DNA of 64,000 bases, from positions 1,334-65,333 of the forward strand of contig CAZYIA010000001.1 of NCBI GenBank assembly GCA_964646765.1, written 5' to 3'. This document shows positions 17,825 to 45,604 of the stretch, piece by piece. Both the position numbers and the translations under genes were made by a program. Source of the DNA: an uncultured Candidatus Saccharibacteria bacterium. GTDB lineage: Bacteria; Patescibacteriota; Minisyncoccia; Phycocordibacterales; UBA9973. Below the pieces are notes generated by a model. The model searched no databases. It was not told the DNA's origin and saw only the letters and a list, made by a program, of their open reading frames with translations. The first letter of the stretch is position 1. Each line of letters opens with the position of its first letter.

Positions 17825-18352
17825 ATGTGTATAGACTGTAAAGGTCCAGTTGGTTTTTCTCCAAAGAGTCTCGGTCTTCTTTTGCTCCGTCTTGTTGTCG
17901 CGGGCATTTTTTTGTATCACGGTTGGAATAAGTTCATGTTTATGGACAATACGGTGATATTCTTCGGTACGCTCGGCCTCGCGCCATTCTTTGCGTACTT
18001 TATTGCTCTCGTTGAAGTTGTTGGTGGTTTGTTTATGCTTCTCGGTGCATTTCCATGTGTTACCGGTATCATGCTTGCTCTCGACATGGTGGTTGCTATC
18101 TTCTTGGTAAAACTTTCAAGCGGTTTTGTTGGCATGGAAACCGAACTTCTTCTTTTTGCTGGCTCACTTGCTCTTGCCCTCATGGGAAGTGGTCGCTATG
18201 CAATTATGAAACACTGTCCATGTAAATGGTGCCGCTGGTGCAAACAAGATGGTGGTTGCGCATGTTGCGGAGGTGGCTGCAAAGACTGTAAAGATTGTGC
18301 AGCGTGTAAGGATGGAGTTTGTGCTCTGCCTAAAACTGAGAAGTCTTCTTAA
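17825..18352 (+). CDS. DoxX-family membrane protein with Cys-rich C-terminal tail
   Basis: LLLRLVVAGIFLYHGWNKF DoxX motif and 4 TM segments. C-terminal 45 aa carry 14 Cys (CPCKWCRWCKQDGGCACCGGGCKDCKDCAACKDGVC). Confidence 0.75.
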   Translation: MCIDCKGPVGFSPKSLGLLLLRLVVAGIFLYHGWNKFMFMDNTVIFFGTLGLAPFFAYFIALVEVVGGLFMLLGAFPCVTGIMLALDMVVAIFLVKLSSGFVGMETELLLFAGSLALALMGSGRYAIMKHCPCKWCRWCKQDGGCACCGGGCKDCKDCAACKDGVCALPKTEKSS

Positions 18353-18446
18353 AAGGCTGTTTTGTTTGACTGTTTTCACTAGTTCTTTATAATCAAGAAA
18401 ACTTCTTGTCAGGAGTTTTATTAATCAGTAGTTCAGTATATTCGTT

Positions 18447-18758
18447 ATGATGGACGATAAAGCATTTCTTGAGTACGTAGTTAAGGCTCTTGTTGATAAT
18501 CCGAACGACGTTAAAATTGATCGCACCGTTGATGAAATGGGTGTGCTCGTAACTCTCTCAGTTAATCCAGCAGATATGGGTAAAGTGATTGGCCGCCAGG
18601 GTAATACCGCTAAGGCAATCCGCACTCTTCTCCGTGTGATTGGCATGAAGAACAACGCTCGTGTAAACCTCAAAATTAATGAACCAGAAGGCGGCACAAA
18701 AAGTGCAAATCCTTCTGAAGCCATGGATGAGGCTCTCGCTGACCTTAAAAACATGTAA
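18447..18758 (+). CDS. KH-domain RNA-binding protein (KhpA/YlqC-like)
   Basis: 103 aa. KH GxxG loop VIGRQGNTAKAIRTLLRVIG. Sits at the position of the KH gene in the rpsP-KH-rimM-trmD operon. Confidence 0.85.
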   Translation: MMDDKAFLEYVVKALVDNPNDVKIDRTVDEMGVLVTLSVNPADMGKVIGRQGNTAKAIRTLLRVIGMKNNARVNLKINEPEGGTKSANPSEAMDEALADLKNM

Positions 18759-18764
18759 AACAAA

Positions 18765-18795
18765 GGCCGCCCGAAAGGGCGGTTTTTGTTTTCCC
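18765..18795 (+). terminator. intrinsic terminator after the KH gene
   Basis: gccgccc-gaaa-gggcgg hairpin followed by tttttgtttt. Confidence 0.75.
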
Positions 18796-18803
18796 CAAGC
18801 CTG

Positions 18804-18831
18804 TTGACGGCTGTTTTTAGGTCGGTAGTAT
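18804..18831 (+). promoter_or_regulatory. sigma-70-like promoter TTGACG-N16-TAGTAT
   Basis: Same architecture as the rpoB promoter at 22051-22078. Confidence 0.5.
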
Positions 18832-18837
18832 GGATAT

Positions 18838-18967
18838 ATGGAATGCCAGAACGCGAAAAACTTTAGCCTCCTTCTAAACCTCCTTACGCCACTCGAGGGT
18901 TGATTCCTGCGTTCGAAACGATCGAAATCAGAAATCAGCTCTCGAAAGAGGGCTGATTTTGTTTTTT
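18838..18967 (+). ncRNA. candidate small RNA (promoter-to-terminator unit, about 130 nt)
   Basis: Bounded by the promoter above and a 10-bp stem plus T-run terminator at 18934-18967. The only ORF inside is 12 codons. Confidence 0.3.
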
Positions 18968-19004
18968 GATAAAAAAATATTGTTGAACTCTTAAATTTAC
19001 CGCT

Positions 19005-19517
19005 ATGCAGCATTTATCATTTTTACCTATCGTAATCCTGAAAGGGATATATGCGAAAAAGCAATTTTCTTGTAGCACATCGTGCTACCAACTCTCACTG
19101 TCAGACAGCGAGCTAACCATTAGCGATACTAACACCGTACCGCACAGCCGATTCACTACTACTACTACTACTACTGCCGGTTCCCGCTACACTACTCGCC
19201 ATGTTCTCACCTCGCTACTCGCAGCAGAAGAAGATGAGGCTAAGTATCCTTCGCTAATTCAGAGTGAACTGGAAAAACTAAATGTGCAGCCAGGCTCACT
19301 ATACAGTTTGCTGGATGCTGTGCAGAAAAACACCCTGGACTTTTTGTGGCCAGATGCGAAATTACTACGCATTCTGGAACCTTTCATGGTAGATGAGAAA
19401 CTCCATTTCTTTATTGCTCAACAAGAGCATGCACGACCAGGTTTTACTCTGGTCTATGTTCCTGCAAGAGAATTTATGCAAATGGAGGCCTGTCCTTTTT
19501 TGTCACATCATCGGTAA
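19005..19517 (+). CDS. hypothetical protein, compositionally atypical (enterobacterial-like codon usage), Thr6 tract
   Basis: 170-aa ORF with a CTG/CCG/CAG-rich codon set unlike its neighbours. (ACT)6 at 19155-19172. Occupies the position where rimM is expected and has no RimM motifs. Confidence 0.45.
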   Translation: MQHLSFLPIVILKGIYAKKQFSCSTSCYQLSLSDSELTISDTNTVPHSRFTTTTTTTAGSRYTTRHVLTSLLAAEEDEAKYPSLIQSELEKLNVQPGSLYSLLDAVQKNTLDFLWPDAKLLRILEPFMVDEKLHFFIAQQEHARPGFTLVYVPAREFMQMEACPFLSHHR

Positions 19518-19604
19518 GATTTACAGTATTCGAAATTGGGAGGGGGTTGTCATTGGCAATCCCTTTTCTATTTGCACGGTTCTTTGAGAGAAGGTAGAGT
19601 ACAC

Positions 19605-20294
19605 CGTATGCGATTTCATGTCGTAACCCTGTTCCGAAACCTGGTTGAGCCGTATTTTTCTGACTCAATTTTAGGCCGGGCAATTAAAGAAAAAAAGATC
19701 TCCGTGAAGTTTTATAACCCGCGGGATTTTGTTCGTGGTAAGTACCGAAAAGTATGGCCAGACGGCAATATTTCCGCCCAGGTGGATGAGCGGCCGTACG
19801 GTGGCGGCCCAGGCATGATTATGATGGCTGACCCAGTGCTTCGAGCGGTAGCCAAGGCGCAGGGAAGCATCAAAAACAAAAAAGCTAAGACAAAAATTAT
19901 TTTCTTTTCGCCAGCGGGTAAAAAGTTTGATACAGCGTATGCAAAAATAGCGGCAAAAAAGTATACCGATATTATTTTAATCAGCGGTCGCTACGAAGGC
20001 ATTGACGCCCGTGTTTTAAAGATTTTGAAAGCTGAAGAAATTTCGGTTGGCGATTATGTGCTCACTGGAGGAGAACTTCCAGCGGCAATTTTAATTGACT
20101 GTATTTCCCGCCAAGTAGAAGGAGTGCTCGGCAACTTTGATTCTCGCGAGGAAGAGCGCGTATCTTCTTCAGAGGTTTATACTCGACCAGAAGTGCTCGA
20201 ATGGAAAGGGAAGAAGTACCGGGTTCCGAAAGTCCTTTTGACCGGAAACCACAAAAAAATAGAAGAGTGGAAGAGCAAAGGTAAAAAGATATAA
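19605..20294 (+). CDS. trmD: tRNA (guanine37-N1)-methyltransferase
   Basis: MRFHVVTLF..., ERPYGGGPGM, SGRYEGIDARV and GDYVLTGGELPA blocks. Start placed at M of MRFHVV rather than the ORF-track 19536. Confidence 0.9.
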   Translation, partial: RMRFHVVTLFRNLVEPYFSDSILGRAIKEKKISVKFYNPRDFVRGKYRKVWPDGNISAQVDERPYGGGPGMIMMADPVLRAVAKAQGSIKNKKAKTKIIFFSPAGKKFDTAYAKIAAKKYTDIILISGRYEGIDARVLKILKAEEISVGDYVLTGGELPAAILIDCISRQVEGVLGNFDSREEERVSSSEVYTRPEVLEWKGKKYRVPKVLLTGNHKKIEEWKSKGKKI

Positions 20295-20303
20295 TTTGTT
20301 TTT

Positions 20304-21614
20304 ATGGAAAGTCCTAGTTTTTTAGAGAGGAAAGAAGAAAAATCAACTGCAAAAGAACTCCTCAAAGGTTTTAAGGAGGGGATGAAAGATCTTACTAGCT
20401 GGAAACCTACTAGTCTGGATACTACTATTTTTCAGACCTACTTGAGGAGGTTCCTTATTGTCTCACTTGCTCTTTGGGCAGCTTCTATACCAGTTCAAAT
20501 TGGTAAACAGGGAGTAGACAGAATTAAGTACGAGCAAAGTAAAAAAAAGTTTCAAGACAAATACAAAGATTTGTCTGTTGAGTCGATATCACGGTTACAC
20601 CAAAGAGCAGTAGAAGCCTACGGGGAGCACTATGTAAATAGTATTCCAGGCGTGAGCTTAGTGAGTGGTGATGCCCAAGAAAAAGTTATTAAAAGGATGG
20701 AAGCTGATAAACCAGAAGTTTTTACTCTGGCAGGAAGTTTCAATATGGGCGACTGGGATAAAGAATTTACTCATTATGAAAAAGAATACGGGGATCTACT
20801 TGATGACGTAACGTTTAATAAAGAAGAATCATCGGAGTATATTATTCTAAAGCAGGATACTGTTTTAGATGTAAACCACAACGAATCTTATACTCATTGG
20901 GCTGAAAGAATGAAAGCATCCAAAGATACTGTTCCCGCAGAAGAATTTCTCTCTAAAATGGAAGTCTTTTTCCCGAAAGGTTGGATAAAAGGTGAAGTAC
21001 AATCTTTCACTTTTAAAGAGCAATATCCAAAACTTACTGCATATGGCGCAAAATCACAGACAGCTGGGGAAGTAGGAAATAATAAAGAACTATTCTTATA
21101 TGGAGTTCAGACAGAGGAATCACAAGGGGAGACTTTAGCTCATGAATTAGGTCATGAGAACGACTGGGAGCGGTCAACCAAACTAAGCCCAGAACAGAGA
21201 TTAGAACTTTTAATGAAAGTGCATGATCGTGTGACTTCAGAGAATAGGTTTCGCTCAGATTATGTAGAGTCCATTTTAAGTGGGGAATTGTATCCAGAGA
21301 TGAAAGATCCGAAAGTCATTCTTCAAACTGCCACTGTTGAGTATTGGGCTGAGATAACAGGTGAATACTTCTCAAACGGAGTTGGCAACTTAGCTTCTGA
21401 AGACGTTGAAGTTATTGAATGGATGATACAAAAAGTGGATCCAGAATTTTTAGCCACACACTCGGCAGGAGGTATTTTTGCTGCTTCGTATAGGGACCAC
21501 AACATACGACAAACAAAGCTCTTTGATGAAGCTTTTGAAGAAGAGAATTCTGACAGCCTAAATCAAAAAGATTATTTAAAAATTGCGTATTATCGGCGAT
21601 ATCTTAATTTATAG
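20304..21614 (+). CDS. membrane-anchored hypothetical protein with HExxH metallopeptidase-like motif
   Basis: 436 aa with one TM near residue 50. HELGHENDWER motif near residue 280. AGA/AGG-rich codon usage unlike host genes. Confidence 0.5.
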   Translation: MESPSFLERKEEKSTAKELLKGFKEGMKDLTSWKPTSLDTTIFQTYLRRFLIVSLALWAASIPVQIGKQGVDRIKYEQSKKKFQDKYKDLSVESISRLHQRAVEAYGEHYVNSIPGVSLVSGDAQEKVIKRMEADKPEVFTLAGSFNMGDWDKEFTHYEKEYGDLLDDVTFNKEESSEYIILKQDTVLDVNHNESYTHWAERMKASKDTVPAEEFLSKMEVFFPKGWIKGEVQSFTFKEQYPKLTAYGAKSQTAGEVGNNKELFLYGVQTEESQGETLAHELGHENDWERSTKLSPEQRLELLMKVHDRVTSENRFRSDYVESILSGELYPEMKDPKVILQTATVEYWAEITGEYFSNGVGNLASEDVEVIEWMIQKVDPEFLATHSAGGIFAASYRDHNIRQTKLFDEAFEEENSDSLNQKDYLKIAYYRRYLNL

Positions 21615-21628
21615 AGGGTACATTTTCT

Positions 21629-22018
21629 ATGATTAAACTTAATTGTTACTCAAAAGAGGAATTTCTAGGCGTTCTCGCGGTTAAGAATGGTTTTTTTACG
21701 ATAGAAAGTAAAAATAAGAGTTTTACTACTGCTCTACAGGAACTTTCAGAACAAGGGATTCCTGTTGCTAATATTGATAGCACAGTGAGTATTATATTTC
21801 CAAAAGATTCACGGTATATCTTTTTCTTAGAAAAGTTTCTTATAAAGTGTGGTTTTCGTATTATTCGTGTTGATACCGAACTCATCACAAAATTAAAACA
21901 GAAAGTAATGACCAATGATACGTCGGTTTCAGAAAGTTCATTTAACGAAATCTATGGGCAGCTTTCTGTCTATGAGGCGAGCCTATTACTGCGAACCCTA
22001 GATTCGCTACCTAACTAG
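21629..22018 (+). CDS. small hypothetical protein
   Basis: 129 aa with no recognisable motifs. Same atypical codon usage as the upstream gene. Confidence 0.4.
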   Translation: MIKLNCYSKEEFLGVLAVKNGFFTIESKNKSFTTALQELSEQGIPVANIDSTVSIIFPKDSRYIFFLEKFLIKCGFRIIRVDTELITKLKQKVMTNDTSVSESSFNEIYGQLSVYEASLLLRTLDSLPN

Positions 22019-35318: not shown

Positions 35319-36929
35319 TTATACATGAGAGAGAGAAATTTTTTTATTATTTCCTCCACGATGTTTTGGGGTAACCCAAAATCCCATGTATTTACCTAAC
35401 AGTAATCGTGTTTGAGCTTCAATGCCTGGGAGCGCGCCAAAGACAACAATTGAGAAGGGTACCAAAAGCCATTCAATAACCATAATTGTTCGAGAAAGGT
35501 AGGGTCGTTTGATGTGTTCCGGAGCTTTTGGTACAAATTGGGAAGCGATAAATGCAGACGATAGAATACCACTCATAGAAAGCACCATCAAAAGCTGGGT
35601 AATGATTGGTAAGTTGTAGGCAAGAGTACTGTGGGCGAAGGTGTAACCGCCGATAACGCCGGGTAGCCAACCAAGGAGGAAAATAAAAATAGGATTTGTA
35701 GCGAGGGCCCAGTAACCGTCAATTTGAATAAGAGCTGTAGAAAGACGTTTCTTTATTGGAATGCGCTTATTTTTAATGAATGAAAAAAGAAGATACGGAA
35801 CATTTTCAGCACCCCACATCCAGCGGCGATGCTGTTTGTACACGTTCTTACAGGTTTCAATGAAGTTTTTTCCCAGATTCGCGTCCATAGAGACTGGATA
35901 GGCCATTGGTGTTACGGTATAGGCACCATTGTAAGCAACATAGGCATTCCAAAAAATTCGAGAGTCATCTGAGACAATGTTGCGCTGCCAGTAACCAAGC
36001 TCAACAAGTGTTTGAAATGAAACTGAGTGTGATGAAAACGTCACTAATTCTTCAGGGCGTTCCTGTTGAATCATTTGCCAAAAGGTTCCCGAAAGAGCAG
36101 GAACACGAGAGAATGGTGGCACATCCCAAATGTTGTTATTGTAAAACGGAATTGGCTGGAAACTTGTTCGATACGGGTTTTTACTGGTTATAAAATGATA
36201 GGCAAGTACATTAAAATATTCTGGGTAAATAACTGAGTCAATATCAAAGGCAGACGCGATAACATCTGTATAGGCAATATGTTTTACATCAAGAATTTGT
36301 TTACGAACTTCCTCGCTCGCGTAAGAAATGTTTGAACCTTTACCTGCAAGTTCACCTGGTACATTACTTGGATGTACCGTAACTAAAAAGTGGCCAAAGG
36401 TGTTGTTAAATTTTTTCTCAGCGTCGTGAGCACGAGTAATCGCATCTGGGCCACCACTTTGCTCTGCGGCAAGTACAACAATAAATTTTGAAAGATCATA
36501 GTGAGCTTTCGTAAGTGATAGTAAGGTATCTTCAATAACTGTCGTTGATTCTGAATGGAAGGGGAGAAGAATGAGATGATAGAGATGCTGGTATGATGTA
36601 CCCTCAAGTTTTTTTTGCCAGTCGGTAGCAAGATTTTTCTTTACCCGGCTATAGTTGTGATGTAAATGGAAAGAGAGGTACGCAGTTTTTAGAAGCCAGT
36701 AGAGATCAAAGGCAATAATAAAAAGTGCTGCACCGCGTGGTGCAAAGTAGGAGATAAGAACCGTACCAAACAGAGTGCCCCAGGTAAGTAAGCCCGGCAG
36801 CATCTCTAAAAAGCGATATAGCCTGCGATCGTTGCCTGTGAGTTCACTTGCGCGCCCGACATGAAAATACGGAGTGTGAATGTACTCCGTGTTCAATGCG
36901 GCTTTATTTTGTAAGGTCGTTTCAGCCAT
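35319..36929 (-). CDS. GT2-family processive beta-glycosyltransferase (cellulose-synthase-like) membrane protein
   Basis: 536 aa. QxxRW motif QHRRWMWGAE, central catalytic domain, multiple TMs. Confidence 0.7.
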   Translation of the reverse strand: MAETTLQNKAALNTEYIHTPYFHVGRASELTGNDRRLYRFLEMLPGLLTWGTLFGTVLISYFAPRGAALFIIAFDLYWLLKTAYLSFHLHHNYSRVKKNLATDWQKKLEGTSYQHLYHLILLPFHSESTTVIEDTLLSLTKAHYDLSKFIVVLAAEQSGGPDAITRAHDAEKKFNNTFGHFLVTVHPSNVPGELAGKGSNISYASEEVRKQILDVKHIAYTDVIASAFDIDSVIYPEYFNVLAYHFITSKNPYRTSFQPIPFYNNNIWDVPPFSRVPALSGTFWQMIQQERPEELVTFSSHSVSFQTLVELGYWQRNIVSDDSRIFWNAYVAYNGAYTVTPMAYPVSMDANLGKNFIETCKNVYKQHRRWMWGAENVPYLLFSFIKNKRIPIKKRLSTALIQIDGYWALATNPIFIFLLGWLPGVIGGYTFAHSTLAYNLPIITQLLMVLSMSGILSSAFIASQFVPKAPEHIKRPYLSRTIMVIEWLLVPFSIVVFGALPGIEAQTRLLLGKYMGFWVTPKHRGGNNKKISLSHV

Positions 36930-37030: not shown

Positions 37031-38497
37031 TTATTCTTCGATTAGTAGTGAAAGTAGTAAATTATAGAACCGGTATACCGAATCGGTATCAACCCATTCT
37101 CTTGTTGTATGAACATCACCCATCGTAGGACCAAAAGATACAATCTCTACACCAGGCATACGTTTGTAAAAAGAAGCACACTCAAGCCCAGCGTGGATTG
37201 TTTTAACTTCAGGTTCACCCCCAAACTGTTCTTTGTATTTACGCTTCAGTAGTGCCAGTAGTTTAGTGTTAAATTGTGGTTCCCATGGCGCGTATTCAGC
37301 AACCACTTCAGTTTCTGCATGTGCTGTTTTGAACAGCGTATTAATTTCTTTTCCCAGTTCGGTAATCTTTGAACTAAGGGAACTTCTAAACATACTGGTA
37401 ATTTTAACGCAGCCGTCTTCCATTTCTACCAGTCCAACATTATTTGATGTCTGAACCATAGTTTTATCTTCTGGTTCCATGCTCATTACACCATCCGGTA
37501 AGTTTGTTAGCAGTTTTAGAAAATCACTTTGTTGGTCGGAGTTCCAGTACTTTTGTGTAGGTTCACCGGTAACCAATTCAATGCTGAACTTTAAACTTTC
37601 GTTTCGGCACAGGTTTCCAGCCTGTTCGGTTAGTAGTGGTATTAAGCTGTTGAATTTCGGTACGTCATTAGTGCGTATCAATATAACTGCCTTTGCCGTA
37701 GAGGGGATGGCATTCATAGCGGTACCACCAGTGAATGAAATAAAACTAAAATCCACACTGCCTTTTAGGTCGGAGAATATTTTTGCCAAAACCTTGATGG
37801 CATTTACGCGGCCTAAGTGTATATCAACGCCAGAGTGTCCACCGGCCAAACCCGATAGCTCAATACTGTAAGTTTTGTAATTAAGTACCGGTTTTACTAA
37901 CTCCAGGTTAATTGAACCAACTACTCTACCTCCACCTGCGCAGCCAACGTATATAATTCCTTCCTCTTCAGAGTCGAGGTTCAGGATACGTTTGCTTTGC
38001 AGAAGGGAATAGTCGAAGTTTTCAGCTCCTACTAAACCTTCTTCTTCGATGGTTGTGTATAGCAGTTCCAGTGGGCCGTGCGGAATAGTTTTGTCAGCCA
38101 TGATAGTCATCATTGCTGCAACACCAATACCGTTGTCGGCTCCCAAAGTGGTATCAGTAGCGGTAAGTATGTTGTCGTTTAGTATAAGTTGGATAGGGAA
38201 CATTTCGGCAACGCTGTCTTCTTTTACACATACCATGTCAGTATGGCTTTGTAAGCACAGTAATGGCAGGTGTTCATAGCCGGAGGAAGCAGGTATGCGT
38301 ACCAGCACGTTGTGCAGGTTATCGCGTATTACTTCCAGCCTTAGCTCGGTAGCTAAGGCAATCAGCATGTCTGCTACAGCAGCTTCATTTTTTGATTTCC
38401 GTGCAATCATGCACAGAGTTACGAAATGCTTCCACAAGTTAATGGGAAGTAGATTGGCGATTACAGCCAGATTGTTTTGGAGGATGTCCTTTTTCAT
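37031..38497 (-). CDS. pepD: aminoacyl-histidine (Xaa-His) dipeptidase, M20C family
   Basis: 488 aa with PepD-type sequence LCLQSHTDMVC...DNGIGVAAMM. Bacteroidetes-like codon usage (CTG, AAG, AGA) unlike the surrounding genome. Confidence 0.8.
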   Translation of the reverse strand: MKKDILQNNLAVIANLLPINLWKHFVTLCMIARKSKNEAAVADMLIALATELRLEVIRDNLHNVLVRIPASSGYEHLPLLCLQSHTDMVCVKEDSVAEMFPIQLILNDNILTATDTTLGADNGIGVAAMMTIMADKTIPHGPLELLYTTIEEEGLVGAENFDYSLLQSKRILNLDSEEEGIIYVGCAGGGRVVGSINLELVKPVLNYKTYSIELSGLAGGHSGVDIHLGRVNAIKVLAKIFSDLKGSVDFSFISFTGGTAMNAIPSTAKAVILIRTNDVPKFNSLIPLLTEQAGNLCRNESLKFSIELVTGEPTQKYWNSDQQSDFLKLLTNLPDGVMSMEPEDKTMVQTSNNVGLVEMEDGCVKITSMFRSSLSSKITELGKEINTLFKTAHAETEVVAEYAPWEPQFNTKLLALLKRKYKEQFGGEPEVKTIHAGLECASFYKRMPGVEIVSFGPTMGDVHTTREWVDTDSVYRFYNLLLSLLIEE

Positions 38498-38722
38498 AAT
38501 AATGGTTTCGTTTTAGTTGTTACCAGAAGAGGGAAGTCTCCTCTGATAACAACTAAAATTGTATGTCAAAAAGTGACGGTTTTCGTTACATTACCATGAT
38601 TTTGCAGTTAGTCAAAAGTTCTTTTTTAGTCGAAGGGCCATCGATCTAATAAAAGGAGGGTCCATTGAAAAACAGATCAAAGTCTGCTAATCTATTGTGG
38701 CTACAGGGTTTTTTAGCCCAGT

Positions 38723-38795
38723 GCCGCCTTAGCTCAGTTGGTAGAGCAACGCTTTTGTAAAGCGAAGGTCCTCGGTTCAAGTCCGAGAGGCGGCT
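38723..38795 (+). tRNA. tRNA-Thr (anticodon TGT)
   Basis: Acceptor GCCGCCT/AGGCGGC, D-arm GCTCAGTTGGTAGAGC, anticodon loop TTTGTAA, T-arm CTCGG-TTCAAGT-CCGAG, discriminator T. 73 nt. Confidence 0.85.
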
Positions 38796-38922
38796 CAGAA
38801 AATTTTCTATTTAGTCATGATGTATGCGAGGTATGTCCTGCGCGAAGGTACGTCGCTTGAGAAGCGGGAGCGGATGGGGCATCTGCGGACACGGCTAGTG
38901 CTGAACGATAAGAAAATTACGC

Positions 38923-41646
38923 TTATGGCTGAGTAGTTCCTTGATTCAGTTTTAATGAAAGCAAAGCGACGTCCTTCTTGGAGTTTCTCTTTTCCAAACC
39001 GTCTAAGACCTTCTTTTCTGTCTCGGGTGTCCAATATATCTTCAATTTTTCCTTCGCTCTCGTGATTGCTGTATAGAAAATATTATGCGTTATCATTTCC
39101 TCTACCTCGTTTGTAATGACAACTTTAACTGAATCAAACTCAAGACCTTGTGCCTTGTGGATTGAAACCGCATAGGAAACCTGAAATGGCACTATCGCAT
39201 CGGAAGAAGAGTCGTCATCATCTTCATCGGTGCTGGGGTATTTGTTGACTGAAAAACGGATAATGGACTTACTTCCGTCAGGTGTGTTGCCAACTAGTTG
39301 GAAATCGTAGCCTTCTGCATCAAGCTCGTTTATTACTTTATCGATCTCGATATCGAACTGGATCCTGTCATTATTTTTGGTAATACCAACGATCTTACCC
39401 TTAAGGTTGTTATAGATGAGCGGAGAGAATCTATTCATCTCATTGAACAGTACAGGGTCACCAATTTTGTAGGTGTGAACTCCCCAGTACATCGGACTGT
39501 TCTTGTTGTTGCTTTGGAGAAATCTATTGATGTTGTTGATGCCGTATAATCCATCGTAATTCAGACAGAGCACGATCTCATCCTCCTCGGCATTCTCAAA
39601 GAAAGATTGATCAAGCTTCACGGAGTATTTATTCTTTGTTATGTGTTCAAGAATATCGGTGTCTATGTTCCGTACTTTATTCCACAAGGTGATCAACTTC
39701 TCGTTAGTGCTACGGTATGGCTTAGTCAGCTCAAACCTAGATGTTTGAGGAATGAAGGACTGGGCAATATTGAACCAGTTACCAAAGTTTATAGACTCTA
39801 TCTGGAACACATCTCCGACCAAGACGAGTAATTTGAACTTTGCTTTTTCCAGAACCGCACGCATATCCGAATTGCTGACGGTACTACATTCATCAATAAT
39901 CAATATGTCGTAGTCGAAATCTGTATTTTTAGGCGAAAGGAATTTACTGATCGTCTTGTATGTACAGTTAGCGGCTTGAACCTTTCTTCTCAAGTTATCT
40001 ACCGCAGGGTTGGTGTTCGCTAGATAAAGTTTGGTCTTATCGTTAAAGAAATTCGATATGTGATTTATCATTGTCGACTTTCCAGTACCAGCGGCACCAT
40101 ACACCAACGCCACCTTTGATTTTTCAAACAATCTTCTCAAAGCATCCTTCTTTTCTTCACAGTCGACAATGTGCGTAGATGTCTGAAGCCAAGAATCGAT
40201 CGAATTAGCGTAGTTGCGAATACCTGTAGATGAAAGCTCGGTCAACTTTTTGATGATGTACAAGGCAGCCTCTTCATATCCCTTGATGTAGATATGGTCT
40301 TTAAACTTCTCCAACTTGCGATGCCCGTGTTTGAAGTATAAGGAAGAATTGTATTTCTGGATCAATGCATCGACGTCTTTAAACCCATCCGTGTCGCTCA
40401 TAGGAGTGTAGAGCTGACCGTCAATTTCGTTTTTATTTGTAATAAACTTTGCGAACATTTCATGCTCTCGACCTGTTGCATCAATGCAATCAAATAGGTC
40501 ATGTGCTCTCGGCTTATGGTTGAGAGGCGAGGAATTGAAAGGCATCTCATCAAACGGAATACACCCGAATTCTAGTTTCAAATTTGAGAGGTTCGGACAC
40601 TCATCGTGGCTATATTGCTGCTTGATGATTTTGTTATTGAGTCTGTAAAGCAGGTATCTGACTACATTTGTACCGGCTTTCTTTGCTTGCACAAATGCAC
40701 GGACATTATCCAGTACATCAAAAATGTATTTAGTCTTTGCCGCGCTTACAATCTTGGACCTTATGCTACCGTAGTAATCGTCAGATAGGTCCATGAACTC
40801 TGTAAGATTCAGTCCTGTCTCCGTCAGAAACCTCATTAACTCCTTGTACTCATTTCCACTTTGGATCTTGGGATCTTTTCCGAAGATTTTCGCAAAGTTA
40901 TTCAACTCACAAGGACGGATAGACACCTCCCAATCGTTAATGATTTGGATGGGCATGTTCTTATCCACGATCTTTATGCTGTCGGTAGTCAAAGATAGCT
41001 TCACGGCATAGTTGTCAGATATATCTAACTTTGTAAAAGCAATGATTCTGTCGAACTTGCTTGCGTAGTCATTAGCGCGTGTAAAAGTTACCTCGTAATA
41101 CACTTCGTAATTGACGAAGAAGGGTTTTACCTTTTGAATGTAGAACCTGTCGCTATTAACACCTTTGGGGTCTGCAGGTGGCTGATGGTTTATTTTCTCA
41201 GCAATTTTTTCGTGATACTCCTTGAGGACGGAATCGGTATTGATGGGAAAGGCATCTATATTCTTGAGAACTTCCAAGTTGTGAGTCTTCTTTAGGTAGG
41301 ACTTTATCTTCAAAAGATACTCGTAATACTTGAGCATCAGCCTCTCCGAATTTTCTTCGTCAGGCGTGTAATGAGAAATTGTCTTTTGAAGAAGCTTGTG
41401 GAAATTACTCAAAAACCGCAGATCGCCCCTGGTCTTAACGTAAGCTTCGCCACTCTTGATGTTTTCGTATGAGTTATCTATGTCCTTGCCGTTGCTGAAT
41501 GCTTTCAGCGAGATGTGGTCGACAAAGTTTCTAAGTTGCGACAGTATGTTCTGTGACAGCAACCCTCTTTCGGAAGTATCAAACCTGTCGATATTGGCAG
41601 ATATGACTTTGTCTGTATTTAAGATTTCAGTATCGACTTTGCTCAT
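38923..41646 (-). CDS. standalone 907-aa fusion protein: uncharacterised N-terminal region with HEPN-like R-x4-H motif plus a C-terminal RecD/TraA-type SF1 helicase
   Basis: Walker A VALVYGAAGTGKST. Walker B/DExx ILIIDECS. Motif III LVLVGDVFQ. Motifs V/VI AVSIHKAQGLEFDSVKVV and TAITRAK. LRNFVDH at residues 38-44. AGA/AGG-rich codon usage. Flanked by tRNA-Thr and its inverted partial copy. Confidence 0.75.
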   Translation of the reverse strand: MSKVDTEILNTDKVISANIDRFDTSERGLLSQNILSQLRNFVDHISLKAFSNGKDIDNSYENIKSGEAYVKTRGDLRFLSNFHKLLQKTISHYTPDEENSERLMLKYYEYLLKIKSYLKKTHNLEVLKNIDAFPINTDSVLKEYHEKIAEKINHQPPADPKGVNSDRFYIQKVKPFFVNYEVYYEVTFTRANDYASKFDRIIAFTKLDISDNYAVKLSLTTDSIKIVDKNMPIQIINDWEVSIRPCELNNFAKIFGKDPKIQSGNEYKELMRFLTETGLNLTEFMDLSDDYYGSIRSKIVSAAKTKYIFDVLDNVRAFVQAKKAGTNVVRYLLYRLNNKIIKQQYSHDECPNLSNLKLEFGCIPFDEMPFNSSPLNHKPRAHDLFDCIDATGREHEMFAKFITNKNEIDGQLYTPMSDTDGFKDVDALIQKYNSSLYFKHGHRKLEKFKDHIYIKGYEEAALYIIKKLTELSSTGIRNYANSIDSWLQTSTHIVDCEEKKDALRRLFEKSKVALVYGAAGTGKSTMINHISNFFNDKTKLYLANTNPAVDNLRRKVQAANCTYKTISKFLSPKNTDFDYDILIIDECSTVSNSDMRAVLEKAKFKLLVLVGDVFQIESINFGNWFNIAQSFIPQTSRFELTKPYRSTNEKLITLWNKVRNIDTDILEHITKNKYSVKLDQSFFENAEEDEIVLCLNYDGLYGINNINRFLQSNNKNSPMYWGVHTYKIGDPVLFNEMNRFSPLIYNNLKGKIVGITKNNDRIQFDIEIDKVINELDAEGYDFQLVGNTPDGSKSIIRFSVNKYPSTDEDDDDSSSDAIVPFQVSYAVSIHKAQGLEFDSVKVVITNEVEEMITHNIFYTAITRAKEKLKIYWTPETEKKVLDGLEKRNSKKDVALLSLKLNQGTTQP

Positions 41647-41972: not shown

Positions 41973-42560
41973 TTATTCTACTATATTTTCGGGAGAATTG
42001 GATACTGGTTCTGTGGTAGTAGGATTTTCTGTCTTGGTTTCCATAACTGAAGCAACATGAACGGTTCGCTTGCGGCGGGCTGGTTTCTTAATTGCTTCGG
42101 TTACTGTTTCAGTGACAGTATGCACGGTTCTTCCTGCATCCTGAACTGTTTTTTCAACTTCAGTTTGCATTTCTTTTGCTGCGTTTCGAAGCGTATCTTT
42201 GTATTCAGAAATGGAGTTTAAGAATTGCTCACTGGTTCGGTTTGCTTCGAGTGCTCCTTTCTCATGTTCAATCCGAGCGAGCATTTTGTGCACTAAGGTG
42301 TCGAGCTTTACGCGAACCTTATGCGCAAAGAGGGCAGTGGTGTGCAGAAAGCGAATGAAGAATGTGCGAATTTGGTCACGAAGGGCGATCAAAAATGCTC
42401 GGGTAATTGCTTCTACTTTAGCTAAGGCAAGAGGATTCTCATGCTCTGGATCGAATGCCGCCGGATTAATTCGGTTCGTTTTGATTTGCCACGCACGAAG
42501 CGAGACAGTACCAACGATACCGACGAGCGAAACGATCCAGAGAATAAGAACGAATGACAT
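41973..42560 (-). CDS. hypothetical membrane-anchored coiled-coil protein
   Basis: 195 aa. N-terminal TM then a helical region. Host-like codon usage. Confidence 0.5.
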   Translation of the reverse strand: MSFVLILWIVSLVGIVGTVSLRAWQIKTNRINPAAFDPEHENPLALAKVEAITRAFLIALRDQIRTFFIRFLHTTALFAHKVRVKLDTLVHKMLARIEHEKGALEANRTSEQFLNSISEYKDTLRNAAKEMQTEVEKTVQDAGRTVHTVTETVTEAIKKPARRKRTVHVASVMETKTENPTTTEPVSNSPENIVE

Positions 42561-44344: not shown

Positions 44345-45604
44345 ATGCGTCAATCAAAGCTTTTTACCAAGACCAAGCGGGAGGACCCGAAAGACGAGGT
44401 TTCCAAGAACGCTAAACTCTTAATTAGGGGTGGTTTCGTTCATAAGGAAATGGCTGGAGTGTATGCTTTCTTACCACTTGGCTTACAGGTGCTCAGCAAT
44501 ATCGTGGCGATTATTCGTGAAGAAATGAATCGCATTGGGGGTCAAGAAGTGGTGCTTACCGCTCTTCAAGAACGTGAACTATGGGAAAAAACCAACCGTT
44601 GGGACGATGCCGTTGTTGATACGTGGTTCAAAACAAAGTTAAAGAATGATACCGAACTTGGTTTAGGTTTTACGCATGAAGAGCCGCTGACACGTCTTAT
44701 GAAGGATCATATTTCTTCATACCGTGATCTGCCTGTTTCGGTGTATCAGTTCCAAACAAAATTTCGAAATGAAACGCGGGCTAAAAGTGGCATTATGCGC
44801 ATGCGCGAATTTTTAATGAAAGATTTGTACTCATTCTCGCGCAATAAAGAAGAACACGATGCCTATTATGAAAGAGCAGCCGAAGCGTACTTGAAAATTT
44901 TTGAACGTGTTGGCTTAGGTAGTCTCACCTATAAAACATTTGCTTCTGGTGGCGTCTTTTCAAAATACTCGCACGAGTTTCAAACGCTCACTGAAGCAGG
45001 CGAGGATATCATTTATGTATCAGAAGCAAAGAAAATCGCCATCAACAAAGAAGTGTACACCGAAGATGTATTACAAAATCTTGGCTTAACAAAAGAAGAA
45101 CTTGTAGAAAAGAAAGCGGTTGAAGTGGGAAATATTTTCACTCTTGGTACTCGTTTCTCAGAACCGCTTGAACTTACTTTTCTTGATGAGAATGGTGAGA
45201 AGAAGCCGGTACTCATGGGCTGTTACGGCATTGGCCCTGGCCGAGTGATGGGCACTATTGTTGAAGCGCTTTCTGATGAGAAGGGAATTGTGTGGCCAGA
45301 ATCGGTTGCGCCATTCCGGGTACATCTTCTTGCTCTTGGCGAAACAGAAACCGTGCGCGAAACAGCCGACAAACTCTATGGTGAACTTTCTGATGCCGGT
45401 GTCTCAGTTCTCTATGATGATCGCCGCGCTTCGAACGGAGAAAAATTTGCTGACGCTGATTTACTTGGTATGCCATATCGCGTAGTTGTTTCAGAGCGCA
45501 GCATGAAAGAAGGTGGCGCCGAAGTAAAAAAGCGAACCGAAGAAAAAGGTTCGATTTTACCGTTCACTGATGTCATTGGTTTTCTCTCTCCTAAAAAGGA
45601 TTAA
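44345..45604 (+). CDS. proS: prolyl-tRNA synthetase (short form lacking the editing insertion)
   Basis: 419 aa. N-terminus MRQSKLFTKTKRE...LIRGGFV and class II motifs FRNETRAKSGIMRMREF and GCYGIGPGRV. Confidence 0.85.
   Translation: MRQSKLFTKTKREDPKDEVSKNAKLLIRGGFVHKEMAGVYAFLPLGLQVLSNIVAIIREEMNRIGGQEVVLTALQERELWEKTNRWDDAVVDTWFKTKLKNDTELGLGFTHEEPLTRLMKDHISSYRDLPVSVYQFQTKFRNETRAKSGIMRMREFLMKDLYSFSRNKEEHDAYYERAAEAYLKIFERVGLGSLTYKTFASGGVFSKYSHEFQTLTEAGEDIIYVSEAKKIAINKEVYTEDVLQNLGLTKEELVEKKAVEVGNIFTLGTRFSEPLELTFLDENGEKKPVLMGCYGIGPGRVMGTIVEALSDEKGIVWPESVAPFRVHLLALGETETVRETADKLYGELSDAGVSVLYDDRRASNGEKFADADLLGMPYRVVVSERSMKEGGAEVKKRTEEKGSILPFTDVIGFLSPKKD

Follow-up and report, generated by a model that had tools for sequence, protein, structure and literature searches.

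ORF170 is a forward-strand open reading frame (ORF; positions 19005-19517) in a 64,000-nucleotide stretch of contig CAZYIA010000001.1, hereafter called the window. It lies between khpA, which encodes a KH-domain RNA-binding protein, and trmD, which encodes the tRNA m1G37 methyltransferase. ORF170 is probably a genuine gene of a tiny, fast-evolving, lineage-restricted family, carried in a self-contained accessory transcription unit with a structured leader RNA acting as a cis attenuator. The host belongs to the Patescibacteria (Paceibacteria/Nomurabacteria-like metagenome-assembled genomes, MAGs, according to the relatives of its TrmD; best TrmD identity 73%) and the window has a GC content of ~42%. 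New here are an unannotated structured RNA leader that is under purifying selection and an orphan gene whose old, divergent alleles form an island between nearly identical flanks. The locus had been singled out by a reading made from the sequence alone (the sequence-only reading); the ORF of 170 residues that it described is confirmed as a plus-strand, ATG-to-stop frame, and its KH gene and trmD were identified by Pfam as PF13083 upstream and PF01746 downstream. The features are collected in Table 1.

A word-indexed search of 5.8 billion proteins with ORF170 returned no match other than the query itself. A full HMMER scan of 1.84 billion representatives gave one clear homologue besides the query, P0003 (169 aa; E = 2e-4), which in a pairwise BLASTP comparison aligned with E = 3e-12 and 29% identity over 115 residues; the third match, P0002, was judged to be repeat-driven and was set aside. 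P0003 shares the N-terminal LPI..G and the C-terminal REFMQxxACPFL motifs with ORF170, and its gene lies directly 3' of a khpA whose product is the KhpA of the window. An exact look-up of KhpA yielded six more module-bearing contigs (L082 and L085-L089) from five other samples, together with a seventh contig (L084) that ends 54 nt past khpA; the identical KhpA protein is encoded upstream of every copy of the module. The alleles on these contigs are of two types (L082/L086 and L085/L087/L088/L089). The three allele types align end to end over 169-170 aa with 31 invariant columns, among them the N-terminal LPI..G, a central TTR..LT and a C-terminal FM...ACP.L; amino-acid identity is 25% for the window allele and 65% between L082 and L085. 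A profile search of the 5.8 billion proteins recovered only the three family clusters, degenerate-pattern scans of metagenome and viral contigs gave no further members, and no relative outside the clade was returned by either of the 5.8-billion-protein searches or by the scan of the 1.84 billion representatives.

Between L082 and L085 the ORF has dS = 1.19 and dN = 0.24 (synonymous and nonsynonymous substitutions per site; dN/dS = 0.20), with 44, 29 and 74 differences at codon positions 1, 2 and 3, and the only indels, of 6 and 3 nt, are in frame. Because of the low ratio, the excess of third-position changes and the indels in multiples of three, the family is read as a translated gene under purifying selection; judged by these substitutions, ORF170 is a genuine protein-coding gene. 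Neither Pfam, NCBIfam, PHROGs nor PADLOC gave a match, even at permissive thresholds, and orphan genes are commonplace in genomes of the Candidate Phyla Radiation (CPR). Inspection of the protein showed neither a signal peptide nor a transmembrane segment, nor any signature of a defence family, and the protein is presumably cytoplasmic; neither a toxin partner nor a defence gene adjoins it. A defence or phage function was considered and dropped, PADLOC and PHROGs being without matches. In a low-confidence AlphaFold2 model, four beta strands lead into a helical stretch of about 50 residues; another three strands and a helix at the C terminus follow. The microsatellite that the sequence-only reading had described as (ACT)6, encoding Thr6, exists, although Tandem Repeats Finder (TRF) counts seven units and hence Thr7; it falls in a variable loop beside the conserved TTR motif, is flanked by short imperfect direct repeats (D1, D5) and is missing from the other alleles.

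The unit that carries ORF170 was delimited by comparison with relatives whose KhpA differs by one residue. These keep the order acylphosphatase, (SelR), GH3, DoxX, khpA, trmD, hyp445, hyp125, and the khpA-trmD spacer of these closest syntenic relatives measures 75-116 nt and lacks the module. Homology between the window and the module-free relatives ends at about 18751-18760, after khpA, and resumes at 19564, the resumed part including the trmD promoter-like TTTGCA/TAGAGT. The extra segment of ~770 nt holds a promoter, the leader RNA, ORF170 and a terminator-like hairpin. As the closest syntenic relatives are without it, the segment is interpreted as a lineage-specific insertion; from this synteny, the unit is a lineage-specific accessory element placed between the khpA terminator and the trmD promoter. 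The unit also has a terminator of its own at its end in L082 and L085, where the next gene encodes a Calx-beta/NHL protein and is not trmD; an ORF170-type gene between khpA and trmD was found only in the window genome. No mobile-element marks (terminal inverted repeats or target-site duplication) were found around 18790-19565, and look-ups of four KhpA variants (P0126, P0127, P0128 and P0138) gave module-free sites only.

Three further observations concern this spacer. Its content varies among relatives (L019, L078, L106, L002, L030, L040, L013, L031 and L037), in which it holds pilin-like N_methyl, PD-(D/E)XK nuclease or DUF3137 genes, ORFs of 600-900 aa, or small minus-strand ORFs without a Pfam match, and it looks like a recurrent insertion spot. 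In module-free relatives (L090, 2813-2928; L102 and L104, 3' of khpA; L105) inverted short-repeat arrays, of the form TAGTAAG... / ...CTTACTAC or of the AGCTGCTAGC type, flank the khpA terminator hairpin and would fold into long, extended stems. In the leader terminator, the 3' arm with its tail (18949-18965) matches the corresponding part of the khpA terminator (18776-18792) at 88% identity over 17 nt (repeat D2), a likeness that may be a trace of the origin or insertion of the unit.

The layout at the start of the unit was as the sequence-only reading had proposed, with a hairpin and T-tract closing khpA (18765-18792), a new sigma-70-like promoter (18804-18831) and an sRNA-like structured unit that ends in a terminator (18931-18967). 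The khpA terminator is invariant in all module-bearing contigs, as are the promoter hexamers across the alleles; the 16-nt promoter spacer differs at about seven positions, its length being constant. The minimum free energy (MFE) of the leader, relative to shuffles, has z = -3.3 in the window and -4.0 in L082, the value for the opposite strand being -1.6. There are 40 pairs in the consensus fold, two of them compensatory and both of these in the terminator; of the other substitutions most lie in loops, and two disrupt or weaken 5'-domain pairs. This domain consists of helix P1 (18841-18851/18904-18914) and helix P2 (18863-18871/18895-18903), the latter closed by a variable 23-nt loop, and is followed by an inner hairpin (18912-18926) that is part of an alternative, antiterminator fold. 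The antiterminator helix, between segments 2 and 3, has 21 pairs and an energy of -26.7 kcal/mol in the window (-21.1 kcal/mol in L082 and L085), compared with -19.0 (window) and -21.4 kcal/mol (L082) for the terminator and -13.9 and -19.2 kcal/mol, respectively, for the 5' domain. The antiterminator is mutually exclusive with the terminator and with the 5' domain, and this competition is preserved in both sequence versions; across the alleles 96.8% of the antiterminator cells are paired, and two of the three changes in segment 3 stay paired (three sequences).

The window genome and that of L082 are not closely similar (khpA dN = 0 and dS = 1.1; DoxX ~57-75% nucleotide identity, window against L087). 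The leader is 80-87% (~84%) identical to that of L082, against ~57-75% for the flanking DoxX gene in the L087 comparison. As the leader keeps 80-87% identity while the adjoining DoxX falls to ~60%, it is, on this conservation, under purifying selection. Rfam 15 (4,227 families) gave no match at threshold, the best scores being 10-24 bits against 37-95 and nearly all lying on terminator hairpins; other known noncoding RNAs (tmRNA, 6S, SRP, riboswitches) were likewise not found, and ARAGORN returned only three ordinary tRNAs elsewhere in the window. A covariance model of the leader (R1) found it only beside members of the ORF170 family, with no copies in 80 relatives or 17 near-identical-khpA loci, and an exact leader 20-mer had 0 matches in metagenome contigs.

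No promoter-like site was seen between the leader terminator and the ORF170 ATG, which lies 37 nt downstream. In L082 and L085 the leader promoter is thus the only visible promoter for the ORF, the unit having its own terminator there and not being followed by trmD. Promoter, structured leader, competing terminator and antiterminator, and the lack of a promoter before the ATG together make up the anatomy of an attenuator, and from the structure and conservation of the leader only, we infer that it works as a cis transcription attenuator. In the default state, segment 1 would pair with segment 2 and segment 3 with segment 4 (the terminator), so that transcription would stop 37 nt before ORF170. 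If segment 1 were occupied, segment 2 would pair with segment 3 to form the antiterminator and ORF170 would be transcribed. The occupant might be a ribosome stalled on a leucine-rich, leaderless leader ORF of 21 codons, or another ligand or factor. This candidate frame is open over its 21 codons in all alleles, has five to six Leu codons over segment 1 and ends in a UGA inside segment 2, the 5' arm of the antiterminator; its ATG stands 6 nt past the -10 box, a geometry shared by five of 50 genes and by 2.7% of background ATGs. These features hint only weakly that the leader ORF is translated.

To our knowledge, no ribosome-mediated attenuator has been described in Patescibacteria. The ORF170 leader resembles the trp, leu, thr and his attenuators (RF00512, RF00506) in its promoter, short leader and terminator just before the gene, in four segments that can form either 1:2 plus 3:4 or 2:3, and in a putative leader frame with 5-6 Leu among 21 codons over segment 1 and a stop in segment 2. 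It differs from them in that the candidate leader ORF would need leaderless translation and that ORF170 is not part of an amino-acid biosynthesis operon; moreover, the only matches to the Leu_leader and Thr_leader families of Rfam fell on the khpA terminator, far below threshold. With riboswitches and protein-dependent leaders it has in common a 5' hairpin domain of ~76 nt that is ~85% conserved against a background of ~60% and is followed by competing helices; unlike these, it is confined to one clade and has no counterpart among the 4,227 Rfam families. If the attenuator is real, it would provide a tractable case of conditional gene control in a phylum with little-known regulatory RNAs and with initiation that is independent of the Shine-Dalgarno (SD) sequence.

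SD-like motifs precede only six of 49 genes in the window, and about half of Parcubacteria have no anti-SD motif (PMC9297842); for these reasons, the missing SD motif at ORF170 is uninformative. A full promoter ends 4-12 nt 5' of the ATG of the GH3 gene (16535), of trmD (19608), and of the genes at 41973-42560 (-), 35319-36929 (-) and 44345-45604 (+), which suggests that several window genes have leaderless mRNAs. The scarcity of SD motifs and the promoter-proximal ATGs fit the reports of Parcubacteria without an anti-SD motif (PMC9297842).

The best-surviving alternative, possible though clearly the less probable, is that the RNA is an independent, trans-acting small RNA (sRNA), possibly associated with KhpA, and that ORF170 is expressed separately, through read-through of the terminator or from a promoter that was not recognised, with no attenuation switch. 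KhpA and KhpB bind sRNAs in other bacteria, and here the RNA has a fixed position after khpA; its own promoter and strong Rho-independent terminator are standard anatomy for a bacterial sRNA, and its nucleotide identity of 84% exceeds by far the 25% amino-acid identity of the ORF. Against it stand the occurrence of the RNA only together with the ORF family, the lack of a promoter-like site in the 37 nt before the ATG, and a stable competing antiterminator in both sequence versions, two of the three segment-3 substitutions pairing with both partners.

Several points weigh against a coding ORF170 behind an attenuator. The leader may instead be a stand-alone sRNA. Covariation is minimal: of the three alleles two are close, and the two compensatory pairs both lie in the terminator, the antiterminator having no double-sided changes and an invariant segment 2. 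The leader ORF is statistically indistinguishable from a chance frame: one of 21 codons is expected by chance in about one third of cases (an estimate made in this analysis), and its Leu richness is due in part to the C/U-rich segment 1. As a coding sequence, ORF170 has a codon log-odds score of ~0.02, compared with 0.13-0.5 for most genes. The AlphaFold2 models reached a mean predicted local distance difference test (pLDDT) of 34 from the single sequence and 53 from the three sequences, which leaves room for a very remote relationship to RimM. A more elaborate form of the attenuator reading, in which a leaderless, Leu-rich leader peptide would drive the 1:2/2:3/3:4 switch of a strain-specific gene kept by balancing selection and linked physically, perhaps also in function, to the RNA chaperone KhpA, the whole forming a new kind of regulated hypervariable cassette in a largely leaderless CPR host without SD sequences, is rather improbable.

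The sequence-only reading had expected rimM between the KH gene and trmD, and had suggested that ORF170 is a gene replacement or a novel analogue in ribosome maturation. That expectation does not hold in this clade. Among 68 relatives with both genes on one fetched locus no rimM was found on any such locus, and in 41 of them the khpA-trmD gap was 3-241 nt; larger gaps hold unrelated ORFs on either strand (pilin-like, PD-(D/E)XK nuclease and no-family proteins; a DUF3137 gene in L106), and a Pfam scan of ten larger gap ORFs of relatives found no RimM. Where relatives have rpsP upstream, the usual order is rpsP, 0-2 genes, khpA and then trmD directly. A 2025 survey of more than 30,000 genomes found rimM to be nearly absent from CPR bacteria (PMC12641178). 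Since khpA and trmD normally follow each other without rimM in the clade, no rimM was replaced here; a KH gene followed by trmD without rimM is the normal CPR arrangement, and an ORF located there does not amount to a 'replacement'. Neither rpsP upstream nor rplS downstream is present within the window, so that the canonical operon is already eroded at this locus. The proposed ribosome-maturation analogue found no positive evidence either, the family being restricted to a tiny clade and, in other strains, not standing next to trmD.

The protein itself was compared with RimM in several ways. The statement of the sequence-only reading that ORF170 has no RimM or PRC-barrel motif was upheld: hmmscan of the three alleles against Pfam at E <= 0.1 and E <= 10 found neither the RimM N-terminal domain (PF01782) nor a PRC barrel (PF05239/PF24986), with none in NCBIfam, whereas the true RimM proteins, 120 among the matches listed, all carry all three domains. 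A RimM hidden Markov model (HMM) was built from five sequences, namely the aligned regions of four solved structures and E. coli RimM; it matched none of the six-frame ORFs of the window and 88 loci. A protein search with the RimM alignment gave only gammaproteobacterial RimM among the matches listed and brought no added diversity. The family profile had 0 matches at E <= 10 among all PDB sequences, in which RimM is represented by 3H9N, 2QGG, 2F1L and 2DYI. A profile comparison made with hhalign between the family and the five RimM sequences gave a probability of 0.07% and E = 0.68 with shallow profiles on both sides (effective number of sequences, Neff, ~2) and lends no support to a divergent RimM. 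A Foldseek search of the PDB with a low-confidence model found nothing significant and no RimM. By every test made here, then, ORF170 is not a RimM protein.

It is accordingly very improbable that ORF170 is a highly diverged RimM, or a nonhomologous analogue, in the ancestral rimM position. The idea draws on the place between a KH gene and trmD in the window, on a length of 170 aa beside 162-182 aa in the solved RimM structures, on 'FIGKL' and 'IPF..F', which by eye recall the 'IGK' and 'LIPF' of RimM (a likeness with no statistical support), and on a local hhalign alignment, collinear across 126 columns. The alignment lacks significance, however, and the searches of Pfam, PDB profiles and Foldseek all failed to return RimM; about 50 residues of the low-confidence model form a helical segment that is not known from RimM; relatives have trmD directly after khpA with no rimM, and CPR bacteria as a whole nearly lack the gene (PMC12641178). 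The family also occurs in a single narrow clade and varies among strains, otherwise near-identical strains having exchanged alleles of 65% identity, which is unlike a ribosome assembly factor, and in L082 and L085 its neighbour is the Calx-beta/NHL gene instead of trmD. In place of the operonic setting of rimM, ORF170 comes with a promoter, a leader and a terminator of its own. That the protein serves as a clade-specific substitute for the missing RimM is a more remote possibility.

The comparison of L082 with L085 shows how sharply the divergence is confined. In these two, khpA has dS = 0.076, the intergenic region is 98% identical and the 218 nt downstream of the ORF are 100% identical, while the ORF itself has 73% nucleotide and 65% amino-acid identity. 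Divergence extends over codons ~16 to ~162; the first ~45 nt and the last ~40 nt of the ORF are conserved. As dS is raised like dN, the alleles are taken to be old and to have been moved by recombination, not to have arisen by fast amino-acid evolution in place; on these comparisons ORF170 is an old-allele divergence island in near-identical flanks. The pattern points to allele replacement by recombination under balancing or strain-specific selection, and it points to an accessory interaction or conflict gene, for which it is usual, more than to a housekeeping ribosome factor; on this pattern, ORF170 is a candidate for a strain-specific factor of interaction or conflict in episymbiotic bacteria. 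The ends of several contigs fall inside the ORF or shortly before it, which would be expected if alleles coexist in the same samples. Known allelic divergence islands (surface-antigen, immunity and defence loci) offer a parallel in the contrast between flanks of 98-100% identity and a gene of 73%, in an ORF dS about 15 times that of its neighbour, in the conserved gene ends and in the fragmentation of metagenome assemblies at the locus; ORF170 differs from them in having, by inspection, no signal peptide, transmembrane segment or defence signature and no adjoining toxin or defence gene.

Dedicated mutagenesis by a diversity-generating retroelement (DGR) or local hypermutation, in place of the exchange of old alleles, is scarcely credible as the source of this variability. 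CPR genomes are rich in DGRs and the divergence is sharply limited to the ORF. The differences, however, span ~440 nt, nearly the whole gene, and not a short C-terminal variable region; third codon positions dominate, with a dN/dS of 0.2; and the substitutions, 90 transitions and 57 transversions, have an ordinary spectrum without a bias towards adenine. The 64-kb window contains no template repeat of the ORF, and ORF170 was discarded as a DGR target on this and on the ordinary whole-gene spectrum. As a separate observation, contig L085 (Logan SRR6837583) is 100% identical to the window (17973-18981) up to the khpA start (18446), falls to ~87% past it and then follows the L087 lineage; the break is due either to a chimeric assembly of strains or to genuine recombination at khpA.

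Equally hard to sustain is the view that ORF170 is spurious, a chance frame in a noncoding spacer or a decaying pseudogene. Its codon log-odds score is close to zero, its codon adaptation index (CAI) of 0.63 is like that of clearly spurious ORFs in the window, and it has neither family matches nor an SD motif. Yet a frame of 170 codons in the 810-nt spacer is expected only ~0.005 times by chance (by the estimate of this analysis), full-length homologues of equal size retain the frame, with a dN/dS of 0.2 and indels of 3n nt, and SD motifs are scarce genome-wide (six of 49 window genes).

The sequence-only reading had called the ORF compositionally foreign, CTG/CCG/CAG/GAA-rich and enterobacterial in look. 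Its choice of synonymous codons is indeed atypical (synonymous-codon likelihood z = -3.8, third lowest of 50 genes), but GC (0.443) and GC3 (0.412) are ordinary for the window. Enrichment was found for CTG (seven of the 23 Leu codons, or 30%, compared with 7% elsewhere in the window) and not for CCG (one codon), CAG (44% against 45%) or GAA (55% against 75%); among the other Leu codons, CTA makes up 26% against 6% and CTT 0% against 35%. The two other alleles have a like codon deviation (z = -5.5) and a like negative GC skew, so that the deviation belongs to the family and is not peculiar to one assembly. The enterobacterial look was not substantiated by blastn, which gave no match in 5,426 complete E. 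coli genomes (28 Gb), and tblastn against phage and plasmid collections also gave no match. A Logan assembly contig of 13.3 kb matches the window exactly over 7.3 kb spanning both junctions, and the arrangement of khpA, leader and ORF recurs with divergent alleles on six contigs, which disposes of the contaminant or chimeric join that the sequence-only reading had considered; with an independent contig identical across the junctions and no E. coli, phage or plasmid match, contamination and chimerism are rejected. The least credible explanation of all is contamination, chimeric assembly or recent acquisition from Enterobacteria, for which the CTG-rich Leu usage and a negative GC skew unlike that of the adjoining genes would speak, and against which count the typical GC and GC3, the empty blastn and tblastn searches, the independent contig, the position of every known homologue behind the same CPR khpA and the lack of relatives outside the clade in the 5.8-billion and 1.84-billion protein searches.

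Table 1. Features of the khpA-ORF170-trmD region; positions are those of the window.
Feature	Position	Strand	Basis or remark
khpA, KH-domain RNA-binding protein, 103 aa	18447-18758	+	Pfam PF13083, E=3.9e-22; upstream neighbour of ORF170, module anchor
khpA intrinsic terminator, CCGCCC-GAAA-GGGCGG then TTTTTGTTTT	18765-18792	+	Read from sequence; inverted repeat I2
Sigma-70-type promoter, TTGACG, 16 nt spacer, TAGTAT	18804-18831	+	Consensus scan, 9/12 matches
Structured leader RNA, ~130 nt (5' hairpin domain, inner hairpin, terminator)	18836-18969	+	MFE, consensus fold
Candidate leaderless leader ORF, 21 codons, MECQNAKNFSLLLNLLTPLEG then stop	18838-18903	+	Frame read from sequence; speculative
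Segment 1, putative anti-antiterminator, pairs with segment 2 at 18895-18903	18863-18871	+	Consensus columns 28-36/60-68
Segment 2, putative antiterminator 5' arm, pairs with 18922-18945	18893-18916	+	Helix energy, allele comparison
Leader terminator, 14-bp hairpin 18931-18944/18947-18960 and U-tract	18931-18967	+	Terminator scan
ORF170, ATG to stop, 170 aa, three-allele orphan family	19005-19517	+	P0003 homology; dN/dS between the other two alleles
(ACT)7 microsatellite, Thr7	19155-19175	+	TRF: 7.0 copies, 100% matches
Terminator-like hairpin and U-rich tail, module end	19538-19577	+	Fold -19.5 kcal/mol, z=-2.5
trmD promoter-like site, TTTGCA, 18 nt spacer, TAGAGT	19571-19600	+	Ends 7 nt before trmD ATG
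trmD, tRNA m1G37 methyltransferase, 228 aa	19608-20294	+	Pfam PF01746, E=2.3e-33; downstream neighbour of ORF170

The true start of trmD is the ATG at 19608 and not the TTG at 19536; aligned from residue 1, its product is 60-73% identical to TrmD of Paceibacteria/Nomurabacteria MAGs, and both hexamers of its promoter-like site are kept in the module-free relative L091. Farther out on the khpA side are genes for an acylphosphatase, GH3 and DoxX; beyond trmD lie rpoB and two hypothetical genes. The DoxX protein (17825-18352, +) has a Cys-rich C-terminal tail (CPCKWCRWCKQDGGCACCGGGCKDCKDCAACKDGVC) past the DoxX domain. The two conserved hypotheticals 3' of trmD (20304-21614, +, and 21629-22018, +) have 445-aa and 125-aa homologues in relatives, and their products gave no Pfam or NCBIfam match; the 436-aa protein 3' of trmD contains an HELGH (HExxH) motif, which suggests a metalloprotease. 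Elsewhere in the window, the minus-strand region 37031-41646, beside a tRNA-Thr gene (38723-38796), encodes a 907-aa superfamily 1 (SF1) helicase (Viral_helicase1/AAA_30/UvrD_C_2) with extreme synonymous-codon deviation (z = -16; GC3 0.51, GC1 0.42). The adjoining M20 peptidase gene is also deviant (z = -6.7), and the two may form an acquired island beside the tRNA gene.

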